The position numbers were made by a program, and so were the translations under genes. This document shows positions 40,384 through 63,025 of a DNA stretch of 64,000 nt, in pieces. Position 1 is the stretch's first letter, and every line of letters begins with the position of its first letter. The stretch covers positions 864,001-928,000 of the forward strand of contig OY970320.1 in the NCBI GenBank assembly GCA_963716745.1, in the 5' to 3' direction. The stretch comes from an uncultured Gemmatimonadaceae bacterium (GTDB lineage Bacteria; Gemmatimonadota; Gemmatimonadetes; Gemmatimonadales; Gemmatimonadaceae). A model generated the notes under the pieces. It was not told where the DNA came from. It saw only the letters and a program-made list of their open reading frames with translations, and made no database searches.

Positions 40384-41967
40384 GTGATCCATCGCAGCCC
40401 CTACCCCGACGTCGTGATCCCCGACGTCCCTTTCCATCAATTCGTGCTCGCGCGCGCGAAGGCACTCGGCGACAAGCCCGCGCTCATCGACGGACCAACC
40501 GGCCGCGTGCTGTCGTATGCCTCGCTCGCCGCCGGCGTCGAGCGCGTCGCCGCCGGACTCGCGGCGCGCGGATTCGCGAAAGGCGATGTATTTGCGATCT
40601 TCGCGCCGAATTGTCCCGACTTCGCGCTCGCCTACCTCGGCGCCGCCGCTGCGGGCGGTGTGATCACCACGATCAGCCCGCTCGCGCCACTCGATGATCT
40701 CGCCAAGCAGCTCGCGAATTCGCGCGCACGGTATCTCGTTACGATCCCGCAGTTCCTCGATCGCGCGGCCCCCGCAGCCGATCGCGCCGGCGTCGAGGAG
40801 ATCTTCGTCTTCGAGACCGCCGATAGTGCGACGCCATTCGCATCGCTCGCTGAATTCGACGGCCGCGCCCCCGCGATGATCTTCGATCCCGCCAACGACC
40901 TCGTCGCACTCCCCTACTCCAGCGGCACCACCGGCCTGTGCAAGGGCGTGATGCTCACGCACCGGAACCTGGTCGCGAACGTGCTGCAATCCGCCGCAAT
41001 GCTGCGGATCGGCGAACACGATCGCGCTATCGCGCTCATGCCCTTCTTTCATATCTACGGCATGGTCGTCGTGATGGGCCTCCATCTTTCACAGGGCGCG
41101 ACGCTGGTCACGATGCCGAAGTTCGAGATGGAGACGTTCCTCGCGCACCTGCAAACGCATCGCATCACACACGTGTGCGTCGCGCCGCCGGTGATCGTCG
41201 CGCTCGCCAAGCATCCCGCACTCGGCACGATTGACCTTTCGAATCTCAGGATCCTCTTCTCCGGCGCCGCGCCAATGGACGCCGAGCTGCAGCGCGCGTG
41301 CGCCGCGCGTCTCGGATGTGACGTGATGCAAGGGTACGGCATGACCGAGGCGAGCCCCGTCACGCACGCGACCAGCGCGCTCCCGGGTAAGAATCGTCCC
41401 GGCACCGTGGGCGAAGTCGCGCCGAACACGGAGTGCCGCATCATCGACGTCGCGACGGGCACAGACGCCGCGCCCGGCGCACCCGGCGAACTCTGGGTGC
41501 GCGGCCCTCAAGTCATGAAGGGATACCTCGGCGACGCCGCCGCCACCGCGTTAACGCTCGACGCCGACGGATGGCTGCACACGGGCGACATCGGCTGCGC
41601 CAATGCGGATGGGTATTTCACCATCGTCGACCGACTCAAGGAGTTGATCAAGTACAAAGGATACCAGGTGCCGCCCGCGGAACTCGAAGCGCTGCTGCTC
41701 ACGCATCCGTGCGTGGCGGACGCGGCGGTGATCGGTGTGCCGGATGCAGATGCCGGTGAATCGCCGAAGGCATTCGTAGTGCTCAAGGGCAACGTGAGCG
41801 CGGAGTCGCTCATGGAGTTCGTTGCCGAGCGCGTCGCGCCGTACAAGCGGATTCGGAGCGTTGAGTTCATCGACGCGATTCCCAAGTCGCCGTCGGGGAA
41901 GATACTGCGGCGCATACTGAAGGACCGAACGACTAACAGCCGGGAACCGATTACCGGGAACCGGTGA
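40384..41967 (+). CDS. 4-coumarate-CoA-ligase-like AMP-dependent synthetase
   Basis: YSSGTTGLCKGV, QGYGMTE, GWLHTGD, DRLKELIKYKG, PKSPSGKILRR. Confidence 0.9.
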   Translation: MIHRSPYPDVVIPDVPFHQFVLARAKALGDKPALIDGPTGRVLSYASLAAGVERVAAGLAARGFAKGDVFAIFAPNCPDFALAYLGAAAAGGVITTISPLAPLDDLAKQLANSRARYLVTIPQFLDRAAPAADRAGVEEIFVFETADSATPFASLAEFDGRAPAMIFDPANDLVALPYSSGTTGLCKGVMLTHRNLVANVLQSAAMLRIGEHDRAIALMPFFHIYGMVVVMGLHLSQGATLVTMPKFEMETFLAHLQTHRITHVCVAPPVIVALAKHPALGTIDLSNLRILFSGAAPMDAELQRACAARLGCDVMQGYGMTEASPVTHATSALPGKNRPGTVGEVAPNTECRIIDVATGTDAAPGAPGELWVRGPQVMKGYLGDAAATALTLDADGWLHTGDIGCANADGYFTIVDRLKELIKYKGYQVPPAELEALLLTHPCVADAAVIGVPDADAGESPKAFVVLKGNVSAESLMEFVAERVAPYKRIRSVEFIDAIPKSPSGKILRRILKDRTTNSREPITGNR

Positions 41968-42057
41968 TGCATGACAACGCATGGTGTTACGGCAGTGCGC
42001 GACGTCGTAATACCATGTTTGGTCATGCCACACCGGTTCCCGGCAATCGGTTCCCGG
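41940..42057. repeat. Family A palindrome
   Basis: Full copy overlapping the ligase stop codon. Confidence 0.95.
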
Positions 42058-42098
42058 CAGTTCGAACGAACCCACTCACTCGCGTGTATTGTTAGCAC

Positions 42099-43050
42099 AT
42101 GCCTGGAAACCGCGAAGACGCCGAGTCCATCAGCCGCCGCAACGCGATCCAGACCCTCATCGCGATCGGCGCGGGCTCATTGATCGCGCCCAAGTTCGCC
42201 GAGGCACAAGGGGCGGCCGCGCTCAACACACGCACGATCCCGCATTCGGGCGAGAAACTCCCCGTGGTCGGACTCGGCAGCTGGATCACGTTTAACGTCG
42301 GCAACGATCCGGACGCGCTCAAGAATTGCGCGCAGGTCGTGAGTCACTTCGCCGCGCGCGGCGGCCGGCTTATCGATTCATCGCCAATGTACGGCAGTTC
42401 ACAGGCGACGATCGGCTACGCGCTGCGCACGCTCAAGGACAAGAGCGCCATCTTCTCCGCCGACAAAGTTTGGACCTCGTCGGCGAGCGAGGCCGCGCCG
42501 CAGATCGCGGAGACGCGAGAAACGCTGGGGCGTCGCGAAGCTCGATCTGCTCGAGGTGCACAACCTGGAAGGCTGGGAACTTCATCTTCCAAAGCTCTTC
42601 GCGATGAAGGCCGCGGGTCAACTGCGATACGTGGGCGTCACCACGTCGCACAATCGCCGGCTCGACGAGACCGAGCAGATCATGCGCTCGCAGCCGATCG
42701 ACTTCGTGCAGTTCACGTACAACATCAGTGACCGCGAACCCGAGCAGCGCCTCCTGCCGCTCGCGCAGGAGCGCGGCATCGCGGTGATCACCAACCGTCC
42801 GTTCCAGGAAGGCGAACTCATCCAGCGCTTTCAGGGTCGCCCGCTGCCGCCGTGGGCCGCGGAGATCGGCGCGCCCACATGGCCGCGCTTCCTGCTCAGC
42901 TACATCGTGTCGCACCCGGCGGTCACGTGCGCGATCCCGGCGACGAGCCAGGTGGCGCACGTCGAAGAGAACATGAGCGCCGCGTACGGTACCCTTCCCG
43001 ACGCACCGACTCGCAAACGCATGGCGGCGTACGTCGACTCGCTCTCATGA
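42099..43050 (+). CDS. Aldo/keto reductase with Tat-like signal (frameshift ~42530)
   Basis: SRRNAI, LPVVGLGSW, IDSSPMYG, then VHNL, YVGVT, AIPATS. Confidence 0.85.
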
Positions 43051-43737
43051 GCGAATGGTGGACGTACCGCCCTCACGATCTCCTCATGTACTCGGCGCGG
43101 GCCTATTACGGTCTGTTCGCGCTGGAGAATTCGCGAGTGTGGCCGTTGCAGCTCATGGCCATCGCGATCGGCGCCACCGCGATCGAGTGGCTCTGGCGAG
43201 GACGCGCGCGCGATCAGCGGATCGCGATCGTGCTCATCGCGGTAGCATGGTGCAGCGTGGCGTGGCTGTACTTCGTGAACGAGTACAGCACCATCCACAC
43301 GATGGCCCGCGGCTTCGCGATCGCGTTCGTCGCGCAGGCGGTGCTGCTTGCGATCGCTGCAGGGAGACTCGCACCATCCGATGCGCGCTCGCGCGCCGGA
43401 GTCGCGCTCGCCCTGATCGCACTCGCAGGTATCCCACTCCTAGCGCCACTCACTGGACGCCCGTGGTCACAAGCCGAGCTATTCGCGCTCGCGCCTGACC
43501 CGACCGTCGGCGTCACGATCGGCGCACTGCTCCTGCTGCCCGGGGAGCAGATGGTGGCTCTGGCCCATCCCTCTCCTGTGGACACTCTACAACGGAGCAA
43601 CGTTGTGGCTGCTCCACGCCTACGCCGGCCTGGCGCTGCCGGCGATCGCGGTCGTCGCGTTGTTCACACGCATCATCGGCAGGAATTCAGTCGATGCGGC
43701 CTCCGTCCCATCCGTTCCATCCGTCCGATCCGTGTAG
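43047..43737 (+). CDS. DUF6064-like membrane protein (frameshift ~43545)
   Basis: MSEWWTYRPHDLLMYS, GRPWSQAELFALAPDPT; the shifted frame continues WPIPLLW to TAG 43735-43737. Confidence 0.65.
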
Positions 43738-43893
43738 AATATGAACCGTGATCTCCGCGCGCCCGCAACGATCGATGCGGTTTCGAGGGATCACGGTTCA
43801 TGTTTTGAACGGATCAGACGGATGGAACGGATGGGACGGAGACCGCGTGAAGGGCATCGGCGCGCAAGCAATACTGCATTTTTTGGGAACGGC
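43696..43893. repeat. Family D inverted pair (GATCACGGTTCAT...ACGGATGGA 9-nt periodic)
   Basis: 43696-43753 is the reverse complement of 43789-43846; continues to TTTTTTGGGAAC. Confidence 0.85.
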
Positions 43894-43916
43894 TAGCGCA
43901 TGTTAGGTGGAATTAA

Positions 43917-43954
43917 TTGTCATGCCACACCGGTTCCCGGCAACCGGTTCCCGG
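43917..43954. repeat. Family A right arm only
   Basis: TTGTCATGCCACACCGGTTCCCGGCAACCGGTTCCCGG. Confidence 0.85.
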
Positions 43955-44146
43955 TAGTAAGAACTACGCACTCGTGACATTTCCGAGTCGTGCATCTCTC
44001 CGGTCCCGACAATATCCTTCGAACCCTATCTCACCTCCGGCGCGCCAAGCGCGCCGACGGTCCGGGAGAGCACCGGCACATCCGCCGGCCTCTGGCGTTG
44101 CCCAATCGGCCACCCGGATCGCGCACGAAGAACAATGGGAGGCACC

Positions 44147-44755
44147 ATGCACAACGGAAGCGCAGTGCTCGTGATCGACATGGCGAACGACTTCGTGTTC
44201 CCTTCCGGAGTCATCGCCGGCGCCGGCGGCGCGGAGTACCAGGAGCGCGCCCAGGCGATCATCCCGCGATTGAGCCGATTGCTCGACGCGGCCCGTCACA
44301 ACGGCACGCTCGTCGTGTACGCGACCGACGCGCATACGCCGGACGACGGCGAGCTCAGGAAGTGGCCACCGCATTCCATGAAGGGAACGAAGCTCGCCGA
44401 GATCGTCGACGACCTGCGTCCGGGCCCGGATGATCTCGTGCTGGAGAAGAACACCTACAGCGCGTTCGCTTCCACCGACCTCGAGCGGCTGCTGCGCGAC
44501 CGCGGCATCACGCGCCTCTACATCACGGGGCTGCACACCGATTGCTGCGCTCGACACGCGAGCGCCGATGCGTTCCAGAAGGGATTCGATCTCGTGTGGG
44601 TGACGGACGCGTTGCAAGCGTTCACTGAAGAGGCCCACCGATCGGGGCTGGAGTACATGAAGTCATGGTACGCGACGGATCCGGATAAACAATTCCGGAC
44701 GGCAAGTGAAATCGAGACCGAATGGAGTCGGGTGCCGGAGATGGCAGAAGCGTAA
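44147..44755 (+). CDS. Cysteine hydrolase (isochorismatase/nicotinamidase family)
   Basis: VLVIDMANDF, WPPH, EKNTYSAF, GLHTDCC. Confidence 0.9.
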   Translation: MHNGSAVLVIDMANDFVFPSGVIAGAGGAEYQERAQAIIPRLSRLLDAARHNGTLVVYATDAHTPDDGELRKWPPHSMKGTKLAEIVDDLRPGPDDLVLEKNTYSAFASTDLERLLRDRGITRLYITGLHTDCCARHASADAFQKGFDLVWVTDALQAFTEEAHRSGLEYMKSWYATDPDKQFRTASEIETEWSRVPEMAEA

Positions 44756-44764
44756 CTGCAACGG

Positions 44765-44882
44765 CCGGGAACCGATTGCCGGGAACCGGTGTGGCATGAC
44801 AACGCATTCCTTAACGACATAGCGCGAAGTCGTGATGTCATGCGTTGTCATGCATCACCGGTTCCCGGCAATCGGTTCCCGG
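44765..44882. repeat. Family A palindrome
   Basis: Full copy. Confidence 0.95.
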
Positions 44883-44929
44883 TAGTCGCCGTGTTGCGTG
44901 AACCCGCCGTGGATGGCAAGCTCACGGCC

Positions 44930-45700
44930 ATGCGCGTCACCGTTTGCGAACTCCCTCACGACCCCGTCGCGTTCGCGACAGCCTGGGCCAAGCTGTGCGC
45001 TCACGCCGATCGTCAAGAATCCGAACTCGTGCTGCTTCCCGAGTTCGCGATGGTCGAGCCGTTGTGGGAGACGGAACGATTCGATGCGGCTCGCTGGACC
45101 TCCGCGGAGCAGAAGGGGAATGACTTGCTCGCGCGACTTCCCGAGTTGTGCGCTGGGTTCGTCGTGTGCACACGCCCGGTGACGCGTGACGGGCGGCGAT
45201 TGAACGAGAGTTACATCGCTAGCGCGGGTGCGGTGACGCCCCTGCGCAGCAAGCATTTCTTGCCCGATGAGTCCGGCGGTTGGGAAGCAAAATGGTTCGA
45301 CCGCGGCGACGCCGAATTCCCCGTGTATCATTTTGGCGCGATCCAGTTCGGTCTGAACATCTGCACGGAGCTCTGGGCACTCGAGAGCTACGCCGCGTAC
45401 GCTCGCGACGGTGCGCAAGCCATCCTGTGCCCGCGCGCGACCGCCGCCGCCACCACGCCAAAGTGGATGGCGGCCGGTGTCGTGGCGGCCGTGCGTTCGG
45501 GTGCGTACTGCCTCTCATCGAACCGCGTGGATCCTACCGGGGCGACTGGCGGGGTCGGATGGATCATCGGCCCGGACGGCCAGACGCTCGCAACCACCTC
45601 GCGCGAATCTCCGTTCGCGACGATCGAGATCGATCTCGCGGCGCCCGCGAGAGCGCGCGCGACGTATCCGCGATACGTGTTCCGTGATCCAGCGCACTGA
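44930..45700 (+). CDS. Carbon-nitrogen hydrolase (nitrilase superfamily)
   Basis: Triad motifs LLPE, SKHFLP, ICTE. Confidence 0.88.
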   Translation: MRVTVCELPHDPVAFATAWAKLCAHADRQESELVLLPEFAMVEPLWETERFDAARWTSAEQKGNDLLARLPELCAGFVVCTRPVTRDGRRLNESYIASAGAVTPLRSKHFLPDESGGWEAKWFDRGDAEFPVYHFGAIQFGLNICTELWALESYAAYARDGAQAILCPRATAAATTPKWMAAGVVAAVRSGAYCLSSNRVDPTGATGGVGWIIGPDGQTLATTSRESPFATIEIDLAAPARARATYPRYVFRDPAH

Positions 45701-45723
45701 TCGCTCGCGAAGAGGCGGGGAAA

Positions 45724-46042
45724 GATCACGGTTCATGTTTGAACGGATCTGACGGATGGAACGGATGGGACGGAGACCGCGTGAAGAGCGTTAGCGCGCG
45801 AACAAATGCAAGCGTTGGGAACAGCTCGCGCGAATCGAGATCGAGCAAGGGAGCGGCGGCGCCCCCGGCGCAGCCGCGGCAGCGAAAAGCGAGAGACTCG
45901 CGCGTCGTCTGCGCGAGGCTCGAAGCGGTTTGAGCGAAAGCGGCCTAGCCGGGGGCGTCGCCGCGACCGGCGGCGCGACGACCCCACGCGCGGTTTGAGC
46001 GAAAGCGGCCTAGCCGGGGCGACGCCGCGACCGGCGGCGCGA
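45724..46042 (+). repeat. Family D+E composite element with a tandem-duplicated 3' part
   Basis: Closely matches 49280-49525; CGGTTTGAGCGAAAGCGGCCTAGCCGGGG occurs twice. Confidence 0.88.
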
Positions 46043-46050: not shown

Positions 46051-47463
46051 CTATCGCGCCCGCCATATGGTCATCGTGCCGGTCGTCGCATGCCCGTTCG
46101 AACTTCCCTCCGGCATCGCGATGCGCCCGTCCACCACGATCGGGCTGTTCCAGTGCCCCTTGCCGCAGTCCAGCGTTGCGAGCACCGCGCCGGTCGCCGG
46201 CTCGTACACGCGCAGCTTGCCATCCGCGTCGTACACGTACAACAATCCCCCCGCGATCACCGGACTCGTGCCGCCGTTCGCATTCTTCCACTTCAGCTCG
46301 AGCTTCTCGTTCGCGAACGTGAACGCCTCGGTGCCGCCCTTATCCGCCATGAAGATCCACGTCGCGCCGGCGCTGTGCCACACCGCGGGTGACGCGAACA
46401 ACTTTGCGCCGCTCGGCGTGCGCTCCTTCTGCGATTCGCCGCCGGTGTGCGGCGGCAACGCGCGGAACTTCTTCCAGTCGAGCAGTCGCACATCCCCGTC
46501 CTTCCCGGTCTGCACCACCCATCCGTCGAGCAACACGGGACTCGACGAGCCGAGGTCCTGGTCGGAGCTGTCGAGCTGATCGGTGTTCGTCGGCGTGTAC
46601 GCGCCGAGTATGCGCGACGCGTCCGGCGACAGCTCGATCACGGCGTCGCCCCAATGGTACGTGCCATCCCAGAGTCCGTTGCCGGTGGCGACGAAGAGGT
46701 TGCCCGTCGTGCTATCCACCACGGCGCCCGTGCGTCCCCAGATCGCGCTCCCGCTCTCGCCGCACGAACTCGGCGCGATCAATGCCGCCTTATCGCTGCA
46801 CAGCGAGTTCCACACGCTCAGCAATTTCCCGCTCGCGGCGTCGAGGATCGCGACGTGCCCCTGATACGGTGCGGCGTCTCCAATGTAGCCACCTGTCGTC
46901 GCGATCACGTGCCCGTGAAACACATTGATCGCGCTCGCGATCTTCTCGCGACGCGGGAGCATGGTGATCGACGTGCTCCACACGGCACTGCCGTCGGTCA
47001 CTGACAGCTTCTCGATCGTGCCGCCGGGATTCGCCGCGTAGATGAACGCCCGGCTCGCGTCCGCCGCGGGCGTGGCGGTGGTCACCTGCGCCGTACCCAC
47101 CCACGTGTCGTAGTCGGACGGCGAATGCTGCCAGAGGATCATGCCCGAGTCGGCGTCGATCGCGGCGGTGATGCCGTACGACGTGGTAACGAAGAACACG
47201 TCACGCTTCGCGCCGCGCACCTGCACCCCATGCAGATACATGGCCGACGCGTCCACCGTGCCGGGCAGCGTGATGTGTCGCACGCGCAGTTGGCTCAGGT
47301 CACCCGCGGCGATGCCGGCGGGCGCCGTCGACGCGTTCGATCCGGCGACGTCGAAGCCGAAGCGCGGCCAATCGTGCGTGGCGTCGCCATCGGCGACGGG
47401 AAGCAACACCGCGCCGAACGCGAGGAGCGCCGCCGCGAGGCGCCAGTCATGTGTGTGAGTCAT
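46051..47463 (-). CDS. Secreted PQQ-like beta-propeller protein
   Basis: Signal peptide, DWPRFGFD, AIDADSGMILW, ATGNG, DQDLGSSSP. Confidence 0.78.
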   Translation of the reverse strand: MTHTHDWRLAAALLAFGAVLLPVADGDATHDWPRFGFDVAGSNASTAPAGIAAGDLSQLRVRHITLPGTVDASAMYLHGVQVRGAKRDVFFVTTSYGITAAIDADSGMILWQHSPSDYDTWVGTAQVTTATPAADASRAFIYAANPGGTIEKLSVTDGSAVWSTSITMLPRREKIASAINVFHGHVIATTGGYIGDAAPYQGHVAILDAASGKLLSVWNSLCSDKAALIAPSSCGESGSAIWGRTGAVVDSTTGNLFVATGNGLWDGTYHWGDAVIELSPDASRILGAYTPTNTDQLDSSDQDLGSSSPVLLDGWVVQTGKDGDVRLLDWKKFRALPPHTGGESQKERTPSGAKLFASPAVWHSAGATWIFMADKGGTEAFTFANEKLELKWKNANGGTSPVIAGGLLYVYDADGKLRVYEPATGAVLATLDCGKGHWNSPIVVDGRIAMPEGSSNGHATTGTMTIWRAR

Positions 47464-47876
47464 GGTGATAGCTCCGCTCGAGTGGGCAGCAGTTCCCGCA
47501 GTCTCGGCTCGCGTGGCCAGAGTCCCGCCCACACGAGAACGCCGAGCACGACCGGAAGGACGCTCAACCCGACCGGCATGCCGGCGTGGAAGTTCGCTTC
47601 GGTGGCGCCGCCCAGATAACCGGTGAGGAGCAGCGCGCCGAGCACGGCGGTGCGCGGGAAGACGTAGAGCACGAGACAGACGAGCAGCGTGATGCCGATG
47701 CCGAAGATGTAGGCCGGAGAGAATCCGTTCTTCGCCGACGCGGCGAGCACCGCGGGCACCTGCAGGATCTTGGTGAGGCAATCGAAGAGCAGGAACAACA
47801 CGACGAGCGTGGTGATTATCCGGCCGGCCCAGATCTGGGCCTTGCTGGGCTGATAGGCAGTGGGAGTGAGTTGCAT
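47460..47876 (-). CDS. DoxX-family membrane protein
   Basis: PRTAVLGALLLTGYLGGA motif. Confidence 0.88.
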   Translation of the reverse strand: MQLTPTAYQPSKAQIWAGRIITTLVVLFLLFDCLTKILQVPAVLAASAKNGFSPAYIFGIGITLLVCLVLYVFPRTAVLGALLLTGYLGGATEANFHAGMPVGLSVLPVVLGVLVWAGLWPREPRLRELLPTRAELSP

Positions 47877-48072: not shown

Positions 48073-48128
48073 GTGTCGTGATGTAATGCGTTGTTATGCC
48101 TCACCGGTTCCCGGCAACCGGTTCCCGG
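48073..48128. repeat. Family A right arm only
   Basis: GTCGTGATGTAATGCGTTGTTATGCCTCACCGGTTCCCGGCAACCGGTTCCCGG. Confidence 0.85.
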
Positions 48129-48184
48129 TAGTCGCATGGCGAGCGGCACTGGACGAATTCGCCAGTCGCATTTAGAGTAAGAGC

Positions 48185-49084
48185 ATGAAGTGGTCCCCGG
48201 TTCTCCTCATCGCGCTCGTCGCGTGTTCGCAGAAGACTGCGAAGGATGCCAAGTCGATCTCGAAGTCGCAGATCGACTCGGCGATGGACGCGCTCAACAA
48301 GAAATTCGCGGACACGCTTCACCCCTTCGCCGCGGGCGCGCACAAGTACGGGCCGCCCACGGGCAAGATCCGAGTCGCGAACATGATCGAGATCAACGGC
48401 ACGCCGGCCGGTCCGGTGGACCTGTACGACGTGTCGCGCCCCGACTCCGCGGCGGTGCCGCTCATCAAGAACTTGGCGTACGGGCAGATCTCGGACTACG
48501 TGTCGCCGCGCGCGGGCGATTCTGCGGCGCCGCGCAGCAATCTCTGGATGTTCCCCGCGGGAACGAAGCAAGCGGCGTTCCCGTACGGCACGAACATCGA
48601 CCACGCCTTCTATGAGCCCGACGACCAGATCACCGTCGCGCCCGGGCCAACGTCAATGGTCGGCTCGATCGGCTACCCGGACCTCGTCGAAGGAGGAAAG
48701 CGCAAGAACTCCTACCGCGACTCGTTGCGCATCATCCCCGCGGGCCAAGCACTGCTCGTCGTGCTCCAATCGAACGTGAATGCCGATTCGTTGCCTGGAC
48801 TGTATCTCATGATCGACGGCGTGTGCCCGCTCACGACCGTGTTCCCCAAGAACACGCATCCCACGGGTCTCGGCACGGACATCAACTTCGGCGTGACACC
48901 CGGCACGCACACGCTGGGCATCATCACGGCGAAGCGCGGATTCGGGCTGCTGAACTGCAACGGCTTGAAGCCCGGGCCAACGACATCGATCACCGTCGAT
49001 GCCGGACATCGGTACGTGGTGCTCGTGTACGGGCTCGCGAAGGACGGGTTCCGGATACTGACGGCGCCGATCGCGGGGCAATAA
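48185..49084 (+). CDS. Hypothetical lipoprotein (DUF4397-like)
   Basis: Lipobox LVAC; IRVAN..GPVDLY..NLAYGQISDY; VDAGHRYVVLVYG. Confidence 0.65.
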   Translation: MKWSPVLLIALVACSQKTAKDAKSISKSQIDSAMDALNKKFADTLHPFAAGAHKYGPPTGKIRVANMIEINGTPAGPVDLYDVSRPDSAAVPLIKNLAYGQISDYVSPRAGDSAAPRSNLWMFPAGTKQAAFPYGTNIDHAFYEPDDQITVAPGPTSMVGSIGYPDLVEGGKRKNSYRDSLRIIPAGQALLVVLQSNVNADSLPGLYLMIDGVCPLTTVFPKNTHPTGLGTDINFGVTPGTHTLGIITAKRGFGLLNCNGLKPGPTTSITVDAGHRYVVLVYGLAKDGFRILTAPIAGQ

Positions 49085-52023: not shown

Positions 52024-52033
52024 CTGCTAACTA

Positions 52034-52151
52034 CCGGGAACCGATTGCCGGGAACCGGTATGGCATGAACACGCATGGCATCACGACTTCGCCCAATGTC
52101 GTGATGCCATGCGTTGTTATGCCTCACCGGTTCCCGGCAATCGGTTCCCGG
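52034..52151. repeat. Family A palindrome
   Basis: Full copy. Confidence 0.95.
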
Positions 52152-52186
52152 CTTGCTCACGCCATGTGACAATCCCCGGAGGCCCA

Positions 52187-52774: not shown

Positions 52775-52796
52775 AGAGGCGGGGCTGCTGGTACTG

Positions 52797-52914
52797 CCGG
52801 GAACCGATTACCGGGAACCGGTGATGGCATGAAACGCATGGCATCACGACTTCGCCCGATGTCGTGATGCCATGTGTTTTCATGCCACACCGGTTCCCGG
52901 AAATCGGTTCCCGG
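52797..52914. repeat. Family A palindrome
   Basis: Full copy. Confidence 0.95.
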
Positions 52915-52926
52915 TAGTTGAGTAGT

Positions 52927-53951: not shown

Positions 53952-54034
53952 GGGGCGCTCAGGAAAAAGAGAGATTCCACGATATGATTCGATCGAGAAT
54001 AAGGCAAGCGTGCTCTCACTAGAAGATCGAACTA

Positions 54035-54152
54035 CCGGGAACCGATTGCCGGGAACCGGTGATGCATGACAACGCATGGCATCACGACATCGTGCGAAGT
54101 CGTGATGCCATGCGTTGTCATTCCATACCGGTTCCCGGAAACCGGTTCCCGG
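54035..54152. repeat. Family A palindrome
   Basis: Full copy. Confidence 0.95.
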
Positions 54153-54214
54153 CTGTTTGTCCTTAGCGTCGCCTCGCTATACTAATACTCACGGACTTCG
54201 ATCAGGAGTATTCC

Positions 54215-54694
54215 ATGTCGCAATCAGCCAAAGTGGGCGAGCCGGCGCCCGATTTCGAGCTGGCCACCGCGGACGGCAAGCGCATGTCGCTGCGCAGTCT
54301 TCGGGGCAAGCCGGTGATCCTCGTCTTCTATCCGGCCGACTGGAGCCCCGTGTGTGGCGACCAGTTGGCTCTCTACAATGAAGTACTGCCCGAGTTCGAG
54401 CGCTCCGGCGCGCAACTCGTCGGGATTTCTGTAGACAGCATGTGGTGTCATCGCGCGTTCACGGGCGATCGCAAATACCATTTCCCCCTACTCGCGGATT
54501 TCGAGCCCAAGGGTGCGGTCGCCCGGCAGTACGGCGTGTACCATACGAAGGACGGCACGAGCGAGCGCGCGCTCTTCGTGATCGATGCGAACGGCGTGAT
54601 CCGCTGGCGTTACGTGTCGCCGATCGACGTGAATCCCGGCGCCGACGGCATTCTGAAAGCGCTCGACGCACTGACGGCGAAGGTGACGTCATGA
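54215..54694 (+). CDS. AhpC/TSA-family peroxiredoxin-like redoxin
   Basis: APDFEL, FYPADWSPVC, GISVDS, ERALFVID. Confidence 0.88.
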   Translation: MSQSAKVGEPAPDFELATADGKRMSLRSLRGKPVILVFYPADWSPVCGDQLALYNEVLPEFERSGAQLVGISVDSMWCHRAFTGDRKYHFPLLADFEPKGAVARQYGVYHTKDGTSERALFVIDANGVIRWRYVSPIDVNPGADGILKALDALTAKVTS

Positions 54695-55239
54695 CCCGAC
54701 GCGCATCGGTGGTGCAGCTCACGGTGCCGGTATCGAAGCGCGATCACCTCATCGGGCCGGACACGGCGCCCGTGACACTGCTCGAGTACGGCGACTACGA
54801 ATGCCCCTACTGCGGCCGTGCGTTCCCGATCGTCCAGGAAGTGCGGAAGCGCCTGGGCGACAAACTACGATTCGCGTTCCGGAATTTCCCGCTCACGCAG
54901 GTGCATCCGCACGCCGAGCACGCGGCCGAGGTGGCCGAAGCGGCGGACGCGCAGGGGAAATTCTGGGCGATGCACGACTGGATCTACACGCACCAGGAGA
55001 CGCTCGAAGATGAAGAGCTGCTGGACGGCGCGCGCGAAGTAGGACTCGACGCCGATCGCGTGGCACGAGAGCTGGCGGACGGCACGCATCGATCACGCGT
55101 GCACGACGATTTCGCGAGCGGCATAAGGAGCGGCGTGAACGGCACGCCCACGTTCTACATCAACGGAGCACGGCACGACGCGGATTATAATTTCGCGACG
55201 CTTATGGGGGCGATAGAGAAGGCTGGGGGAAAGAAATAA
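54691..55239 (+). CDS. DsbA-family thioredoxin-fold protein
   Basis: EYGDYECPYC, RNFPL, GVNGTPTFYING; ATGA overlap with the redoxin gene. Confidence 0.9.
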   Translation: MTRRASVVQLTVPVSKRDHLIGPDTAPVTLLEYGDYECPYCGRAFPIVQEVRKRLGDKLRFAFRNFPLTQVHPHAEHAAEVAEAADAQGKFWAMHDWIYTHQETLEDEELLDGAREVGLDADRVARELADGTHRSRVHDDFASGIRSGVNGTPTFYINGARHDADYNFATLMGAIEKAGGKK

Positions 55240-55242
55240 CTA

Positions 55243-55359
55243 CCGGGAACCGATTACCGGGAACCGGTATGGCATGAACACGCATGGCATCACGACTTCG
55301 CCGATGTCGTGATGCCATGCGTTGTCATGCATCACCGGTTCCCGGAAACCGGTTCCCGG
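55243..55359. repeat. Family A palindrome
   Basis: Full copy with AACTA...TAGTT flanks. Confidence 0.95.
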
Positions 55360-55363
55360 TAGT

Positions 55364-57292
55364 TCAGGTCCTTTCGATCCTGAAATACGCCGCGTATCTC
55401 TCCCCGAACACATTCACCAGCGGCACGAACGTCATCGGCGTCCCCTGCCCCACCGTGGTGAACTCGAGCGGCTTTCCCGCCACCGGCGAAAGCCAACTCG
55501 CCGGGTCATCGCTCGGCGCTTTGATCGGCGCGGCGTGGATCTCGGGAATGTCCGGATATTCCGGTATCGTGCGCGGCGCCGTGGGTTTCGCGAGAACATT
55601 CTCGGGCGTGAGGTCCTTCTTCCCCATGAGACCCACGAGCACGAGCGGTCCGTACATGATCGCCTGCATCCGGTGATCGTCGGGCATGGGATGCGCGTGC
55701 AGGTGCATGGGCAGCGTCACCTCGAGCGTGTCGCCCGATTTCCATTCGCGATCGACAACGAGCCAACTCGACGGGCCCGCGAACGCGGTGAGCGGTTTGC
55801 CGTTCACTCTCGCGCTTCCGCCGCGCGTCCAGTACGGAACTCGCACGCGCAACGCGAGTCTCACCGGTTTGTCGGCGATCACGGTGAGCGTCGTCGTGTC
55901 CCCGACCGGGAATTTCGTCTCCTGCCGGATCTTCACGCCCTTCGCCGCCCACGTCACTTCGCTCGGCACGAAAAGATTCACCCACACGCCCGAGTCGTCG
56001 TGGAAGTACACGCTGTCGCCGAGCTTCGAGAAATTCTCGACGCCCGTGCCCTGGCAACACCAGAATCCCTGCTCCGGCGTGCCGAATAGTTTCCAGTATC
56101 CGTCGGCGAGCGGCGTGTAGTAGATCTTCTCGCCATTCGCGGGATCCATGGTCGGCATGATCCCGTTCCAGTACGCGCGCTCGTAATAATCCGCATAGCG
56201 CACGTCGGGGCGCCACGTGAACAGGTGCCGCGTGAGCTTCAGCATGTTGTACGAGACGCACGTCTCCTGCGTGTAGCCGCTGAGCGCGCCCGCGAGCTGG
56301 CCGGGCTCGAATTGCCACTCCTCGCCGTTGCTCGTTCCGCCGGTGGCGTACGCGCGGCGCTCGGTCACATCCTCCCAGAAGAACTCACTCATCCCGCGCG
56401 GACGGTCGTCGCCCGTCATCTCGTGCCATCGCGCGGCGCCGAGCACTTTGGGGACGTTCGTGTTCGCGTGCACCGATTTGAGTTCATCGCGCCCAACGGC
56501 CAGCGGCGCTAGGAACGTCTCCTGATCGAAGCGGCTCGCGATCTTCGCATACTTCGCGTCGCCCGTCGCCTGCGCGAGCTCGCGCAGCGCATCATTCATG
56601 CCGCCGTATTCCGTGTTGAGCAGCGCGTGCCACTGCGTGTCCGGAATGGGTTCGGCGTACGCGATCACCCAATCGCCCATCCCTCTCGCCATCGCGAGCG
56701 CCTGCGCGTTGCCGCCCAGCGTGTACGTGTCGACGAGTCCGGCCAGGATCTTGTGATACGTATAGAACGGCGCCCAAACGCGCCGGCGCTCGGCGAGGCG
56801 CTCGAAATATTCTTTCGGGAACGCGCTCAGATACCCGCCGCCGAGCGCGGCTTGGCAGGGCGCGAGCTGCGCGACGATCAGATCGCCGCGCGCTTTGATC
56901 GTGGCGTCGCCCGTCTGCGCCGCCATGAGCGCACACGCGCTCATGTAGTGACCCACGAAGTGACCGCGCAGTTCGTTGTTGGGCGCTTCCCACCCGCCAT
57001 ACGGTTTCGCATCGCTCGCGATGCCGGCATTCACGCGGAACACGTGGAGCAGCCGGTCGGGATCGAGCGCGAGCATGTACTTGCGATTGATCTCCAGCGC
57101 GGTGAGCTGCGGCCCCGGAAGCAATCGCACGTCGTGCAGATCGAACGGCAGCGCCGCGAATGTGATCGGCGCCGCGGCGAACTCGCGGGCAAGACGGGAG
57201 AGGCGCGCGAGATGCGACTCGGCGCTCTGGAGCACCGGAAGCGCCGCACCCGCGATCGCGGCCTTTTCGAAGAATTCTCGACGATTGATCAT
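55364..57292 (-). CDS. GH127/GH146 beta-L-arabinofuranosidase-like protein, Tat-exported
   Basis: NRREFF, YGGWE, LRGHFVGHY, WAPFYTYHK, EYGGMN, HANT, ETCVSYNMLKL, WCCQGTG. Confidence 0.9.
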   Translation of the reverse strand: MINRREFFEKAAIAGAALPVLQSAESHLARLSRLAREFAAAPITFAALPFDLHDVRLLPGPQLTALEINRKYMLALDPDRLLHVFRVNAGIASDAKPYGGWEAPNNELRGHFVGHYMSACALMAAQTGDATIKARGDLIVAQLAPCQAALGGGYLSAFPKEYFERLAERRRVWAPFYTYHKILAGLVDTYTLGGNAQALAMARGMGDWVIAYAEPIPDTQWHALLNTEYGGMNDALRELAQATGDAKYAKIASRFDQETFLAPLAVGRDELKSVHANTNVPKVLGAARWHEMTGDDRPRGMSEFFWEDVTERRAYATGGTSNGEEWQFEPGQLAGALSGYTQETCVSYNMLKLTRHLFTWRPDVRYADYYERAYWNGIMPTMDPANGEKIYYTPLADGYWKLFGTPEQGFWCCQGTGVENFSKLGDSVYFHDDSGVWVNLFVPSEVTWAAKGVKIRQETKFPVGDTTTLTVIADKPVRLALRVRVPYWTRGGSARVNGKPLTAFAGPSSWLVVDREWKSGDTLEVTLPMHLHAHPMPDDHRMQAIMYGPLVLVGLMGKKDLTPENVLAKPTAPRTIPEYPDIPEIHAAPIKAPSDDPASWLSPVAGKPLEFTTVGQGTPMTFVPLVNVFGERYAAYFRIERT

Positions 57293-57341
57293 GACATTCG
57301 ATTTGCGTGAGCGGATGAGTATTTGCAAGGGGGGAGAACGG

Positions 57342-57458
57342 CCGGGAACCGATTACCGGGAACCGGTGATGCATGACAAAGCATGGCATCACGACATCGC
57401 GCGAGTCGTGATGCCATGCGTAGTCATGCCACACCGGTTCCCGGTAACCGGTTCCCGG
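57342..57458. repeat. Family A palindrome
   Basis: Full copy. Confidence 0.95.
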
Positions 57459-57538
57459 TCGTTCTGCTCTCGCGCTTCCTGGCCCTCTCAACTAAATATT
57501 CACGTTGTCAGTGGTCTCTCAACTGGGGGCCTAATGTC

Positions 57539-58960
57539 ATGATGATCTCTCGTCGAACTGTGATCCTGGGCGGCCTGGTCCTGTTGGCCGAACGCTACAT
57601 CTCGTGGCCTCTTCGAGGTAACGCGCCCGACGAAGAGTCGACCCTGAACGATGCGGTCGATGCCTATCTGTACGGCTATCCTCTGCTCGTCATGGACACG
57701 ATGCGCCGGCAGCTCACCAACGTTCCTTCCGCTGAGCCAGCTCGTGCGCCCATGGGCCAACTGCGCCGGCTGAGGACCTACCCGGCGGTGAACGACCATT
57801 CCGTTCCGGCGCCCAATGCCGACACTCTTTACACCGACGCGTGGCTCGACCTCCGCAAGGAGCCGATGGTCCTGTCCGTGCCGGACATGGGCGATCGCTA
57901 CTTCATGCTGCCCATGCTGAGCGGCTGGACGAATGTCTTTCATGTGCCCGGCACCAGGACCACGGGCGAAAAATCGCAGACGTACGTGATCTCGGGTCCC
58001 GATTGGTCCGGCGCGCTTCCCGCAGGTGCCATCGAGTACAAATCGCCGACTTCGATCGTTTGGATGCTCGGCCGCATCTATTGCACCGCCACGCCCGAGG
58101 ACTACGCCGCCGTCCACGCGCTGCAAGACAAGATGTCGCTGGTGCCGTTAAGCCAATTCGGCAAAGCGTACACGCCTCCGGTGTCTCCCGTGGATCCCGC
58201 GATCGATATGCGCACGTTGCCGCGCGACCAGGTGAACGCGCTCGGCGTCGACGAGTATTTCAAATATCTGGCGGAGTTGATGAAGACCAATCCGCCGCTG
58301 CCGCAGGACGGGCCGATGATCGCACGCATGGCGAGCATCGGGCTGACGCCCGGGCGCGACTTCGATCCGGCCCCGCTGCGTGCGCTCGGTGCGAGTGCCA
58401 TCAGCGACATCCCGAAGATGGCCATGCAGCGCATGCTGGCGCGTTTCGGACAACTGCAGCATGCGAACGTCAACGGGTGGATCTTCTTCGGCCCGAGCAT
58501 CGCGAGCTGGGGCACCGACTACGAACTGCGGGCCCTGTGCAACTTCTTGGGACCGGGGTGGAATCTCCCCGCCGACGCCGCGTATCCCGCCACCGAGAGG
58601 GGCACCGACGGCAAAGAGTATGATGGCAACGGCAAGTACGTGCTCCGCTTCAAGCGGGGCGAGATGCCGCCGGTGAACGCGTTCTGGTCACTGACCATGT
58701 ACGACAGCGATCGCTTCTTTGTGCCCAACGCGCTGAACCGTTACACCATCAGCCAGCGCGATGAACTCGTCGCCAACGCTGATGGCTCAACGGACATTTA
58801 TCTGCAGGCCGATTCGCCCGGCAAGGACCGAGAGGCCAACTGGCTTCCGGCGCCGAAAGGGAAATTCAGCGTCATGCTGCGATTGTACTGGCCGAAGGAT
58901 AAACCGGTTTCGATCCTGAACGGCACGTGGACGCCGCCGAAGGTGGAAGCGGCGGGCTGA
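57539..58960 (+). CDS. DUF1254/DUF1214 domain protein
   Basis: AYLYGYPL, PNADTLY, EPMVLSVPD, PPVNAFWSLTMY, NWLPAP, LRLYWP. Confidence 0.9.
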   Translation: MMISRRTVILGGLVLLAERYISWPLRGNAPDEESTLNDAVDAYLYGYPLLVMDTMRRQLTNVPSAEPARAPMGQLRRLRTYPAVNDHSVPAPNADTLYTDAWLDLRKEPMVLSVPDMGDRYFMLPMLSGWTNVFHVPGTRTTGEKSQTYVISGPDWSGALPAGAIEYKSPTSIVWMLGRIYCTATPEDYAAVHALQDKMSLVPLSQFGKAYTPPVSPVDPAIDMRTLPRDQVNALGVDEYFKYLAELMKTNPPLPQDGPMIARMASIGLTPGRDFDPAPLRALGASAISDIPKMAMQRMLARFGQLQHANVNGWIFFGPSIASWGTDYELRALCNFLGPGWNLPADAAYPATERGTDGKEYDGNGKYVLRFKRGEMPPVNAFWSLTMYDSDRFFVPNALNRYTISQRDELVANADGSTDIYLQADSPGKDREANWLPAPKGKFSVMLRLYWPKDKPVSILNGTWTPPKVEAAG

Positions 58961-58975
58961 CTGCGAGGCACACGG

Positions 58976-59092
58976 CCGGGAACCGGTTGCCGGGAACCGG
59001 TGATGCATGACAAAGCATTGCATCACGACATCGCGCGAGTTGTGATGCCATGCGTAGTCATGCCACACCGGTTCCCGGTAACCGGTTCCCGG
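58976..59092. repeat. Family A palindrome
   Basis: Full copy, nearly identical to 57342-57458. Confidence 0.95.
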
Positions 59093-59102
59093 TAGTTCGC
59101 CT

Positions 59103-61764
59103 CTAAGGCTGCGGCAAGAAGATCGCTCTGGCTCCTTCAGTCTTCATCCCGCCCGCGATGATCACGCGCTCCCCCTCGATCTTGCCGGCCGAAACCAGAT
59201 AATCGAGACAAGCCTTCGCCCGCGCACTGGCCAGTGCGTGCAAGTCGCCCGCCTTCTTGTCCGCGGTCGAGTCCACCGATCCCGCGATCTGGATCTTGAG
59301 CCCCGGATGTTCGTGCATCTCCTTCGCGATCGCGTCCGAGCTTCTTCTTGTCAGCGTCCGTCAGAGCGCGTGGGCTCCGTGCGCGAACTCGACATACGTG
59401 AGATCCTCGTCGCCTCCTCCCTTGCTCAGTCCCAGCAGCGCGAACGGCGACGTCGCGATGCGAATGATCAGGCTCTTGAATTGGTCGTAGACCACTTGCT
59501 CGAGGCGGAAGCTCGGATCGTCCAGATTCCCTTCCACCGGGACCTCGAGCACGATGCGCCCCGACCGGTCGCGCATCACGGTGAACGCGGTCTTCACCGG
59601 GAGCTTGGTGGCGTCGGGGCTGTTCGTCGCATGCGCCCCACTCGAAGCCATTCATCGTGATCTTCGTGTGCGACGTGAGGCGGCGATCGGCCACTCTGTA
59701 CGTGATCGCGAGGCTCAACTTTCCCGCGGCGATCCCGTACCCCACGTGCTTCCCGAAGTACGGGCCGAGCGGCACCATGTCCATCCCCTGCATTCCAACG
59801 GTGAGCTCGCTCCCTTCGCGTTGGTTCAGGAGATTGATGCGCCCTTTCACCGTGAGTGGCGCCGCGTTGTTCACCGCCGCCGTCACTTCGAGCGTGCCCA
59901 CGCCGATCGAGTCGGTGGAGAGTTTTCCGGTGGTGACGTTCAACTTGTTGACGGTCACGGAGAACGGCGGCTTGATCGAACTGTCCGCGACGCCCACGCG
60001 GCCGTTCGTGAGGTTCAGTCCGCCAATGGATATGTGCATCTTCGGCGCGGCGTGCGCCGCGGAGTCCGGCTTGGCGGGAGCGGGCGCACTGTCGGTCGGG
60101 AAGATCAGGCTCGTGCTCGGCGAACCATTCGCGAGCAGCGCGATCTCGACATCCGGCGCATCGAGCGCGATCGCCGCGATGCCGAGTTGGGATTTCCGCT
60201 GCGAGAAATCGATCCCCTTCACGCTGAGCGACGCGAAGGAGACGAACGGACCTTTGACCACCGCGTCCGTCGTCGCGAATTTGTCGACGCGCACATCGCC
60301 GGTGAACACAATGTCCGGCTTCTTCGCGTCCGAAACGTCCATGCGCAGCTTTGCTGTGGCACTCAGCGCGCCATCGCTGATGAGGAGCATCACGCGCGGC
60401 GCGAGATACGCATCGAAGGGCGCGAGTGACATCTTCGACAGAGTGATCGCGAGCTCGCCGCGCTTCTGCCAGATGTTCACCGCGCCCTGGGCACCGAGCG
60501 TGCCGGTGCCCTGCCAGGTGAGCGCGGCGCGGATGCGAGTCGCGGCCGCCGTGTCGCTCGCAATGCCATCCGCCTGCACTGAGAGCCCGGTGATCGCGAA
60601 CTTCGCCGGCCGGCCGGCGGCGGAATCGGTGACGCTCACCGCGAAGCTGTCGAGGGAAACGCGTGACACCGACCAATTCCACGCGGGCGCCGGCTTCGCC
60701 GCTGCCGCCGGCGCGGGAGCGGCCTTCGAGTCGCTCGCAGCCAATTTGCTCAGATTCAGCGTGCCGTTCGCACCGCGCACGACGCTCACTCCACCGCCCC
60801 GCAGATCCACCGCGCTCACGTACGCCGAGTGTTGCAGCGGATCTACGTCGAATGCCAGAGATCTCGAGGCGCCGCAACAGGACAACGCTGTCGGCCATGC
60901 CCGCGGATCATGAGCGCGAGCCGGTCGAGTCGAAGCGTTCCCTCCGTGACGCGAACGATCTCCCGCTTCGGCGTAAGGTCCACCGTGTACTTGGCGCGCA
61001 CGGCGCCGAGTCCGTTCGCGACGTCGAAGCCCACCGCGTTCTCATAGAAAGTCGCCGTACTTGGCGAGCCGAATGCTGTCGAAGGAGAATTCTCCGGTGG
61101 AGCGCACGGGATCGATGGCGAAGCTGCCGGCCAGCGAGAATTTCTCGCCACTCTCGGTGCGCCCGGCGAAGGAGTACTGGTTGTGACTGTCGCTGCGCGT
61201 GGCGAAGTCGCGCAGGTCGATGAACCCGGGCCCGACCGTCGTCGCGAACGGACGCGTTGCCGAGCTGTCGACGAAGGCGACGTGCGCGTCCTCAATGTGC
61301 AGTACGGTTATCGCGAGCACCGGCGGAGGCTTCGGGTTCGGCGGCTCGGGCTCCTTCGGCGCGGCGTTCAGTGAGTCGATGATGTCCGAGATGTTCATCC
61401 GGCCATCCGCGCGGATCGCGATGCGCGCGTACGGTCCCACCAAGCGCACTTCGGCGAAGGTGAATTCGCGCTTGAAAAGCGAAACGAGCTGGAAGTTGAT
61501 GTAGAAGCGGTCGAACGAGAGGAGCGTCGTCGTGTCCCGGTCGGCGACGCGCAGACTGTCCACCGTGAGGGAGAGCGCGAAGGGATTCACGCGCACGCGC
61601 GCGACGGTGACCGTGCGGTGGAGCGTGGCACTGGCCTGCTTCACGAGAATGCCTCTCACGATCCCCGGCGCGACGAAGAAACCGGCGATCGCGTACAGGG
61701 CCAGGAGCACGGCGAGAACAATGAGCACAATGCGCGGCCAGCGGCGCGGTCTTACCTGTGGCAT
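59103..61764 (-). CDS. DUF748 domain protein with OmpA-like C-terminus (multiple frameshifts)
   Basis: N-terminal TM, RVNPFALSL, RADGRMNISD, PYFGKHVGY, LPVK..DRSGRIVLEVPVEGNLDDP, LASARA. Confidence 0.75.
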
Positions 61765-61811
61765 ATGCCCAAAGTATGAAGGGCGCGGCGGTCGCGCTAT
61801 ACGACAAACGG

Positions 61812-61929
61812 CCGGGAACCGGTTACCGGGAACCGGTGTGGCATGAACACACATGACATCAGGACTTCGCGCACTGTCGTGATGCCATGCGTTGTCATGC
61901 CACACCGGTTCCCGGTAATCGGTTCCCGG
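61812..61929. repeat. Family A palindrome
   Basis: Full copy. Confidence 0.95.
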
Positions 61930-62007
61930 CCCTTGCCGTTACCACAGCGCGCGGCCGTTCACGCGCGTATAGTGTAAGAGCTTCAGCGACAAACCCCAGG
62001 AGAATCC

Positions 62008-62898
62008 ATGATGCCGATCCCCCGCCTCGCGCTGATCGCCGCCCTCGCTGCCGCGCTCGCCGCGTGCGGCAGCACCTCCTCCACGGGGCCAGGCAGCAAC
62101 TTCACCGTCATCGGCGACAGCGCAGTCACCATCGGGCCGCCCGGGGGGAGTCTGACCTACGCCGCCGGCATCAACGATTCGGGAACAGTGGTCGGCGTCG
62201 TGGTGGATGATGTCACGAGCATCCAGTATGGCTGGCTGCTCAAGGGTGGCTTCCTGCAATATCTCACGGCCACCATCCCGAGCTCCGCCAACACCACGCC
62301 GCAGACGATCAACGATAGCGGCAACGTGGCAGGGTTCTTCACGGTCGGCACCGTCGCTCACGCCTTCCTCTTCAATGGCACCGCGTACTCCCAGTTCGAT
62401 TATCCAGCCGCGGCGTCGACGGAGGCCGACGGGATGAACGCGTCCGGCACCATCGTGGGCGCCTACTTCGTGAGCGGGTCCGCGAACGGGCACGCCTTCA
62501 AGTTGAGTGGGGGCACCTTCACCAACATCGAGCCGCCGTCCGTCACCTCGTCGGTGGCACTGGGGATCAATGCGCTGGGCGACGTCGTCGGCGAGTTCAC
62601 CGACAACGCCGGCCAGCATGGGTATGTCTGGCTGCACGGCGCGACTGCCCCCACCGAGATCACGCAGAGCGGCGTCGACCAGATCACGCCCTACTCGATA
62701 AACGATACCGGCACGATCGTCGGAAGCTGCACGGTGTCGGGAGTATCGTACGGGTTCCTCCTCGCGGGCACCACATTCAAGATCATCCAGGCGCCGAGCG
62801 CCTCGTCCACGCAGGCGTACGGCATCAACAATGCCGGGGTGGTGGTGGGAGAGTACACGAACTCGGTGAATTACGCGTTCGAGCTGACGACGCAGTAA
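62008..62898 (+). CDS. Lipoprotein with HAF-type extracellular repeats
   Basis: Lipobox LAAC; repeats A.GINDSG.VVG....HAFL. Confidence 0.82.
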   Translation: MMPIPRLALIAALAAALAACGSTSSTGPGSNFTVIGDSAVTIGPPGGSLTYAAGINDSGTVVGVVVDDVTSIQYGWLLKGGFLQYLTATIPSSANTTPQTINDSGNVAGFFTVGTVAHAFLFNGTAYSQFDYPAAASTEADGMNASGTIVGAYFVSGSANGHAFKLSGGTFTNIEPPSVTSSVALGINALGDVVGEFTDNAGQHGYVWLHGATAPTEITQSGVDQITPYSINDTGTIVGSCTVSGVSYGFLLAGTTFKIIQAPSASSTQAYGINNAGVVVGEYTNSVNYAFELTTQ

Positions 62899-62907
62899 CT
62901 ACAACGG

Positions 62908-63025
62908 CCGGGAACCGGTTACCGGGAACCGGTGTGGCATGAACACGCATGACATCACGACATCGCGCAATGTCGTAATGGAATGTGTTGTCATGCATCA
63001 CCGGTTCCCGGTAACCGGTTCCCGG
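62908..63025. repeat. Family A palindrome
   Basis: Full copy. Confidence 0.95.

Follow-up and report, generated by a model that had tools for sequence, protein, structure and literature searches.

Dispersed palindromes at the junctions of gene gain and loss in an accessory region of a Gemmatimonadaceae chromosome

What has placed a copy of one and the same palindrome between successive, functionally unrelated genes of a bacterial chromosome, and does the palindrome take part in the turnover of those genes? The question is raised by a 64,000-nucleotide stretch of a Gemmatimonadaceae genome (hereafter the window; positions 864,001–928,000 of G000, a 3.29-Mb single contig, 90% complete, with 67% G+C), in which a ~118-bp palindrome, termed family A below, recurs between short blocks of accessory genes. 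An earlier note on this DNA had proposed a gene-capture or shuffling platform: comparison with relatives supports this in part, in that genes are gained and lost exactly at repeat boundaries, but no shuffling was seen, as the shared array genes are neither inverted nor reordered in the relatives G002 and G004. The array is real, and most likely a case of repeat-mediated gene exchange, in a variant that on the tested features does not match the promoter early stem-loop (PeSL) elements of phages, repetitive extragenic palindromic (REP) doublets (REPINs) with their REP-associated tyrosine transposases (RAYTs), MITEs (miniature inverted-repeat transposable elements) or integron attC sites.

Family A loci were mapped genome-wide with a profile of the repeat arm, which recovered 94 arms in 51 loci of G000 (43 full palindromes and 8 single arms). 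All the copies that had been noticed before, 13 in 21 kb and three more in the first 41 kb (one of them cut by the window start), were found by this profile. The 13, comprising 10 full palindromes and three right arms only, fall within 21.1 kb (window 41935–63029), and 19 copies fall within 905–952 kb of G000; 5000 random placements into the 1318 intergenic spaces of the genome never put more than 6 copies into 21.1 kb or more than 8 into 50 kb. The platform idea was to fall if repeat density were uniform and gene order conserved with no gain or loss at the boundaries; density is far from uniform (13 copies against at most 6) and boundary gain and loss is seen, while gene order is indeed conserved. 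Between 51.4 and 63 kb each junction of non-overlapping genes contains a copy, and it is in this form that the claim of a repeat in every intergenic space holds. The gene labels given earlier (cupin, DinB, hydrolase, redoxin-DsbA, GH127, DUF1254, DUF748 and HAF) also stand, the cupin being weak and under the cut-off. After a 17-kb hairpin-free gap the array resumes and reaches 951 kb of G000. G002 and G004 are independent assemblies, about 95% and about 90% identical to the array region, and they carry the array collinearly, so that an assembly artefact is ruled out.

Long hairpins of all families are dense over 750–1000 kb of G000, with 15–18 per 50 kb over 750–950 kb versus about 4 elsewhere, and three of the 12 tested hairpin families are locally clustered, the other two near 0.81 and 2.31 Mb. 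Because hairpins of all families are dense there and two other families cluster too, the array is an extreme case within a wider accessory region rich in hairpins; among its 19 scored genes, 12 lie in the lowest fifth for third-position G+C. The other two clusters, at about 813–863 kb and about 2306 kb, hold 11 of 50 and 8 of 30 copies of their own families in 50 kb; gene indels are hairpin-bounded at the former and not at the latter.

Comparison with the relatives revealed five gene-scale differences within the array. The DUF1254 gene (57560–58960) is flanked by two copies in G000, whereas G002 and G004 have one in-register copy with both original flanks kept; base for base, the left copy in G000 retains the left flank of this empty allele, as the right copy does the right flank. 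Of the 595 pairs of copies, no other is as alike as these two, at 96% identity versus a median of 83%. The DinB gene (52187–52774) likewise lies between two copies in G000, whereas in G004 the gene is missing and the junction holds a single variant copy. In the slot at about 45.7 kb, alternative genes in G004 and contig C22 of G002, and again in contig C3 of G002, are each bounded by other hairpin families, and in G005 other genes lie between family A copies in the 944–952 kb part. G002 (63% complete) contains overlapping contigs of different lineages, C3 and C22 being about 83–92% alike (to each other or to G000) and one locus being present in three versions, and hence its alleles do not represent one strain. 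Since 7 of 10 array genes place G004 as the outgroup, gain of DUF1254 in the G000 lineage is the simpler reading; no donor was found among 301 genomes of the family, the best match being 54%. Short, low-depth contigs from the read runs X4 and X2 match DUF1254 (window 57793–58825) without differences, and the other listed X4 pieces differ by 8–14%, a weak hint of a recently shared allele.

DUF1254 and DUF748 did not arrive as one block, for the divergent tract begins mid-gene and the mosaic tracts are not copy-bounded. A break in G004 at window 62927 is a contig end rather than an indel. Cassettes joining at hairpin centres were also considered and set aside, since insertion of other families into a copy or on top of it accounts better for the half copies.

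In a strict test, in which events with fewer than 350 non-repeat bases were dropped and the DUF1254 event was counted once, family hairpins flank the filled allele on either side in each of the array's five gene-scale indels. Elsewhere, over about 0.9 Mb, this is true of 2 of 42 indels, both of them four-helix-bundle genes inside the loop. On G002 contig C22 (823–910 kb, with several families) 4 of 7 indels are hairpin-bounded, one event being common with the array's five. The strict test replaced a loose breakpoint test, which had assigned hairpins to both ends of 18 of 46 indels and was dropped because its count included hairpin swaps and in-loop genes and scored single slots twice.

Each arm of the palindrome runs from an AAC-N-R start through a heptamer-like run and a variable 3-base module to the inner stem. 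The arms begin AAC-N-R-CCGGG, the outer arm can be read as three heptads, two of which are GGGAACC, and in 28 of 35 copies the variable module of one arm does not pair with that of the other. Folding of four copies as single-stranded DNA (ssDNA) gave -55 to -68 kcal/mol, with z-scores of -10 to -18. Outside the cluster copies lie mostly close behind stop codons; 7 of 19 copies inside it stand between divergent genes versus 1 of 32 outside, counts of orientation that are approximate because the gene calls come from our own hexamer model on a frameshift-rich assembly. Promoter-like and terminator-like matches number 4 and 12 versus 3.3 and 11.8 in shuffles, and no promoter match falls within any family A copy, in a scan that used only the sigma-70 consensus. 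A search of the window against Rfam and a pattern scan of a phage collection for the repeat both gave 0 matches. The repeat occurs in 4 of the 5 other genomes of the genus (in one as a single match), all titled uncultured Gemmatimonadaceae, and in 0 of 55 further relatives, and 41 of 42 loci in a species-wide scan fell in three Gemmatimonadaceae genomes; family A is genus-restricted.

At 2,133,803–2,134,361 of G000 two family A arms enclose a 120-residue gene matching the four-helix-bundle families PF05635 and TIGR02436 (E values of 3e-34 and 1e-32 for TIGR02436, and 8e-22 for PDB 2GSC). G005 has the same A-armed cassette, 81% identical, in the same slot, and A-like arms enclose a four-helix-bundle gene in a metagenome contig (L126) and in G001 (L022). 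All seven PF05635 matches in G000 (one under the cut-off) each lie between the arms of a different hairpin family, in a genome with 12 hairpin families of six or more copies. The sole split A copy in G000 is the one enclosing the four-helix-bundle gene, DDE families not having been searched one by one, and no split copy was found in the incomplete G002 and G004, which keep family A although the slot is taken there by different four-helix-bundle cassettes with different arms; this speaks against a simple dependence of family A on its enclosed gene. Since its arms enclose such a gene and each PF05635 match has its own family, family A may be read as the gene-less form of a gene-in-a-hairpin element, much as REPINs stand to RAYT loci; the anatomy is directly seen, the descent presumed. 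The four-helix-bundle protein is not known to have catalytic activity. The slot itself, in an ABC-transporter operon (L012, L014, L024, L253), holds different four-helix-bundle alleles with different heptamer arms in G001, G002 and G004; with the A-armed allele in G000 and G005, this amounts to whole-cassette swapping between close species. GxxExxY (PF13366) genes give 13 matches in 5 genomes of the genus, and two in G000 (C1:1094823–1095158 and 2952907–2953217, the second frameshifted) adjoin 9-mer hairpin families.

The pattern of gain and loss matches that given by homologous recombination between near-identical neighbours, and we consider it probable, with real room for doubt, that a REPIN-like palindrome colonised the accessory region and serves there as a junction for such recombination, no dedicated recombinase having come to light. 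Comparison between genomes shows that such hairpins are normally found a few bases behind stop codons, and that one takes the place of another at intergenic slots which themselves stay fixed. Family A would have spread locally in a dispensable region until neighbouring slots held near-identical 118-bp copies, and local copying or conversion may have made the neighbours near-identical; the clustering is itself observed, and copy identity drops with distance in the cluster (rho -0.44, over 120 non-independent pairs). Host recombination between two copies would then delete the gene between them, which accords with the junctions, although the enzyme is only surmised. In the reverse reaction a circle, or incoming DNA of a relative, that carries a copy would insert its gene and leave two copies. 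A palindromic site would let a gene enter either way round, so that copies may become stranded between divergent genes. The outcome would be a passive cassette platform without an integrase of its own, working much as the PeSL cassettes of T4 and the repeat arrays of Neisseria do.

Several observations weigh against this account. The five-of-five result is partly circular, because every gene block inside the array is hairpin-bounded; as a control, the blocks bounded by hairpins that G004 lacks were counted (3 of 14 within the array versus 2 of 98 outside it, p=0.014), a result that depends on 3 events, and turnover is in any case quicker among accessory genes. At the second clustered family near 2.3 Mb only 0 of 9 and 1 of 9 indels are hairpin-bounded (a further sample from 2.3–2.5 Mb gave 0 of 1). 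Two insertions of 4.6 and 9 kb adjoin the array with no hairpin at their ends, and hence other routes of gain also operate. A direction is supported for DUF1254 only, the local trees being mosaic; neither circles nor junction reads were seen in four read runs, which are low-depth contigs with no usable joints. Although G002 has about 40 family A loci, a search of it at 63% completeness turned up no four-helix-bundle gene in family A arms. Finally, the account does not explain how the hairpins spread and replace each other.

An actively working system is an alternative that we judge unlikely. In such a system a trans-encoded protein, be it the four-helix-bundle protein together with an enzyme of the host, a GxxExxY nuclease or a tyrosine recombinase, would exchange what hairpins contain or have between them, recognising the folded hairpin or its AAC...GTT ends and capturing cargo in either orientation. 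Slot by slot, 102 hairpins of G000 compared with G004 include 64 of the same family, 15 of another family, 7 unassigned sequences (mostly hairpins), only 4 short or empty places and 12 that could not be scored; at five sites with family A in G005 or G004, G000 holds an other-family hairpin of similar size, and at a sixth a short remnant. In the clearest replacement the families are swapped between shared AAC and GTT ends, which are enriched among family hairpins (113 of 305, versus 70 of 5000 random non-coding pairs), and at one slot a four-helix-bundle cassette has been swapped between species with 95% identical flanks. Such swaps favour active exchange. Its fuller form, which we regard as comparably improbable, is a transposase-free cassette system in which each four-helix-bundle (Avd-like) or GxxExxY protein would recognise its own family, exchange AAC...GTT-ended slots, and capture or release cargo either way in dense regions, integron-like on symmetric sites. 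Against such exchange, positions are stable (of 44 G002 copies examined, all 40 that could be mapped are matched by a copy at the corresponding place in G000), 10 of the 15 family swaps are between two possibly related families, the conserved order and orientation noted above show no rearrangement, and the junctions betray no fixed crossover point. No tyrosine recombinase or other recombinase gene was found near the array in G000. Its tyrosine recombinases are, judged by their context, two XerC/D-like proteins, one belonging to a small integrated element and one frameshifted integron integrase. The small element (G000:C1:511043–515211) has a primase-like gene with its tyrosine recombinase and is missing from G004.

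Slots are also shared by several families at once. The 9-mer-type and other families, nested or truncated, occupy the same intergenic spaces as family A at 43.7–49.5 kb (window 43696–43865, 45720–46042, 47974–48004 and 49123–49534), where relatives hold other hairpin combinations. At L081 on contig C1 of G005 a family A copy is split at its loop by about 160 bp including a 9-mer-type repeat, so that families nest. A transposase gene of G004 (C2:354649–355978), presumably IS30-like, is inserted in a hairpin slot.

Alternatively, the genes may have come by unrelated routes and family A later hopped locally to the new gene ends, the array being a by-product and the repeats having no part in gain or loss. 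Copies placed just behind stop codons, the local clustering of 3 of 12 families, the hairpin density of the whole 750–1000 kb region and the hairpin-free recent insertions beside the array all fit mere colonisation, and the similarity of neighbours also fits local hopping. We nevertheless hold it to be rather unlikely. Because the flanks of the empty allele are kept to the base at DUF1254, mere colonisation requires that a new copy hit the insertion junction precisely, and this in a divergent intergenic space, a setting that holds 1 of 32 copies elsewhere.

That the array is a cluster of attC sites lacking an integrase (CALIN) served by the integron integrase of the genome is very improbable and, as an attC array, largely refuted: the ssDNA hairpin has AAC and GTT ends and an integron integrase does exist, frameshifted in G000 and intact in G005, but RYYYAAC precedes only 3 of 84 family A arms, there is no conserved extrahelical base (gaps are scattered, and none of the first 50 arm positions is gapped in more than 2 of 35 copies), and array genes lie on both strands, whereas the genes of integron cassettes face one way. 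The earlier note had no integrase in view, which holds for the surroundings of the array; in the genome the integron integrase lies at 2.776 Mb, 1.85 Mb away. Behind it stands a canonical 93-bp attC (G000 2777326–2777418), detected in an attC scan to which none of the family A copies responded; family A arms are absent from the 25 kb around the integrase. The integron locus spans G000:C1:2775534–2777418 (L117; L116 in G005). Set beside the attC definition (PMC12901181), family A resembles integrons and CALINs in having unrelated accessory genes split by ssDNA hairpins, with a gene and one site gained or lost together, and differs in the lack of a core-site consensus, of extrahelical bases and of a linked integrase, and in both gene orientations.

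A REP or MITE family mobilised in trans had been named as the main alternative to a platform. A REP-like family is indeed closer to what is observed: family A is an extragenic inverted doublet that folds as a hairpin near gene 3' ends, as in REPINs, and has terminal inverted repeats without coding capacity between them, as in MITEs. However, the linked gene encodes a four-helix-bundle protein and not a transposase, and a search for Y1 transposases or RAYTs (PF01797) was negative in all 6 genomes of the genus at 63–90% completeness, with the control positive in 6 of 14. No target-site duplication was detected, flanking repeats of at least 2 bases occurring in 6 and 3 of 43 copies, not above shuffled pairs, and no clean empty site was found for family A. 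The GTAG or CGTC tag of REP arms (compare PMC3733652) is not at the 5' end of the family A arm. Accounts of REPINs and RAYTs (PMC5581495, PMC3116915) describe extragenic hairpin doublets, insertions of one family nested in another and, for each family, a gene that its repeats enclose, all as here; they report REP doublets, however, to be spread more or less at random over extragenic space, in contrast to the clustering of family A. REP sequences of E. coli are reported not to be preferred at amplification junctions (PMC1428787), a caution that concerns 38-bp REPs, family A being three times longer. A search for SbcD returned only a match under the cut-off.

Among described systems, the PeSL elements of T4-type phages (Arbiol et al. 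2010, PMC2839356) are reported as ~100-bp repeats in variable regions, where a gene between two elements is replaced by a single element in a relative, just as at DUF1254 and DinB. They are promoter-terminator units for which mini-circles were demonstrated, and excision and reverse insertion by recombination were proposed there; family A is in contrast chromosomal, a symmetric palindrome with no promoter or terminator excess, and linked to the four-helix-bundle family. The Neisseria intergenic mosaic elements (NIMEs; dRS3/RS) described by Bentley et al. 2007 (PMC1797815) form syntenic, internally dynamic arrays beside variable genes, and that account proposes that they favour recombination with incoming DNA, by which array-flanked genes may be inserted as well. 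They are multi-unit arrays of 20-bp dRS3 in one intergenic space, whereas family A consists of single long hairpins punctuating successive genes. The ORF-bearing intervening sequences of Coxiella 23S rRNA (PMC4990558) have the same protein family inside terminal inverted repeats with heptamers; the gene of family A differs in lying in an mRNA operon slot and not in rRNA, and its gene-less copies bound cargo genes. The GGGAATC heptamer repeats of Xanthomonas (PMC4692102) are heptamer-built inverted pairs near stop codons, like the family A arms; raised genomic stability is reported near them, and the main text of that paper has no match to 'helix bundle' or 'transposase'. In a literature search that covered listings and abstracts, apart from the papers cited here, and few subscription journals, no published description of the link between four-helix-bundle genes and hairpins, or of such an array, was found.

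Table 1. Family A copies and neighbouring features of the window (window coordinates).
Feature	Coordinates	Strand	Evidence or state in relatives
Family A palindrome cut by window start	1..88		Arm profile
Family A palindrome, outside array	2857..2980		Arm profile
Family A palindrome (variant), outside array	23921..24049		Arm profile
Family A palindrome, full	41935..42062		Arm profile, folding
Hairpin of second, 9-mer-type family, in same intergenic slot as family A arm	43696..43865		
Family A right arm only	43908..43958	-	Arm profile
Isochorismatase-family gene	44147..44755	+	Missing in G004 and G002 C22, present in G002 C3
Family A palindrome, full	44760..44886		Identical in G002 C3
Carbon-nitrogen hydrolase gene	44909..45700	+	
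Compound slot of other repeat families	45720..46042		G004 and G002 C22: peptidase and FHA pair; G002 C3: different ~1.3-kb gene
PQQ-type beta-propeller gene and DoxX-like gene	46051..47876	-	
Family A right arm only, adjoining remnants of other families	48074..48132	-	
Probable lipoprotein gene (DUF4397, weak)	48185..49084	+	
Slot filled by arms of other repeat families	49123..49534		
Gene with weak DUF6259 match	49539..51353	-	
Right arm of family A with degenerate left arm; between divergent genes	51418..51477	-	
Cupin-like gene, ChrR-like (weak, under cut-off)	51559..52023	+	
Family A palindrome, full	52029..52152		
DinB_2 gene	52187..52774	+	Missing in G004, single family A variant at junction
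Family A palindrome, full	52793..52918		Arm profile, folding
Alpha/beta hydrolase gene, frameshifted in assembly, ends approximate	52920..53950	-	
Family A palindrome, full; between divergent genes	54030..54157		Arm profile, folding
AhpC/redoxin (AhpC-TSA) and DsbA-like gene pair	54215..55239	+	
Family A palindrome, full; between convergent stops	55238..55364		
GH127 glycoside hydrolase gene	55364..57292	-	
Family A palindrome, full; 96% identical to next copy	57338..57463		
DUF1254/DUF1214 gene	57560..58960	+	Missing in G002 and G004, single family A copy at junction
Family A palindrome, full	58972..59097		
DUF748 gene, frameshifted in assembly	59103..61728	-	
Family A palindrome, full; between divergent genes	61807..61931		
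HAF-repeat probable lipoprotein gene	62008..62898	+	
Family A palindrome, full	62903..63029		Arm profile, folding

Some further features touch the same genes and repeats. The frameshifts in the genes at 59103–61728, 52920–53950 and 42099–43050 are probably long-read assembly errors, such breaks being frequent genome-wide. A paralog of the DUF748 gene (G000:C1:1495582–1498654, about 52–55% identical) has a family A copy straight after its stop codon. A 7-kb block at window 16902–23916, ending at the family A copy at 23921, is missing from G002 contig C22.

The locus thus offers a countable case in which dispersed palindromes of a chromosomal region are the junctions of gene gain and loss without an integron, with exact filled and empty alleles. 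It also ties a junction sequence to the long-unexplained four-helix-bundle (rRNA intervening sequence/Avd-like) family, with one gene per hairpin family, and the function of these proteins thereby becomes testable with defined substrates. Should the exchange be driven merely by RecA, the idea put forward for PeSL and NIME would be extended to a soil phylum; if instead the linked proteins truly drive it, this would be a new mechanism of mobility.

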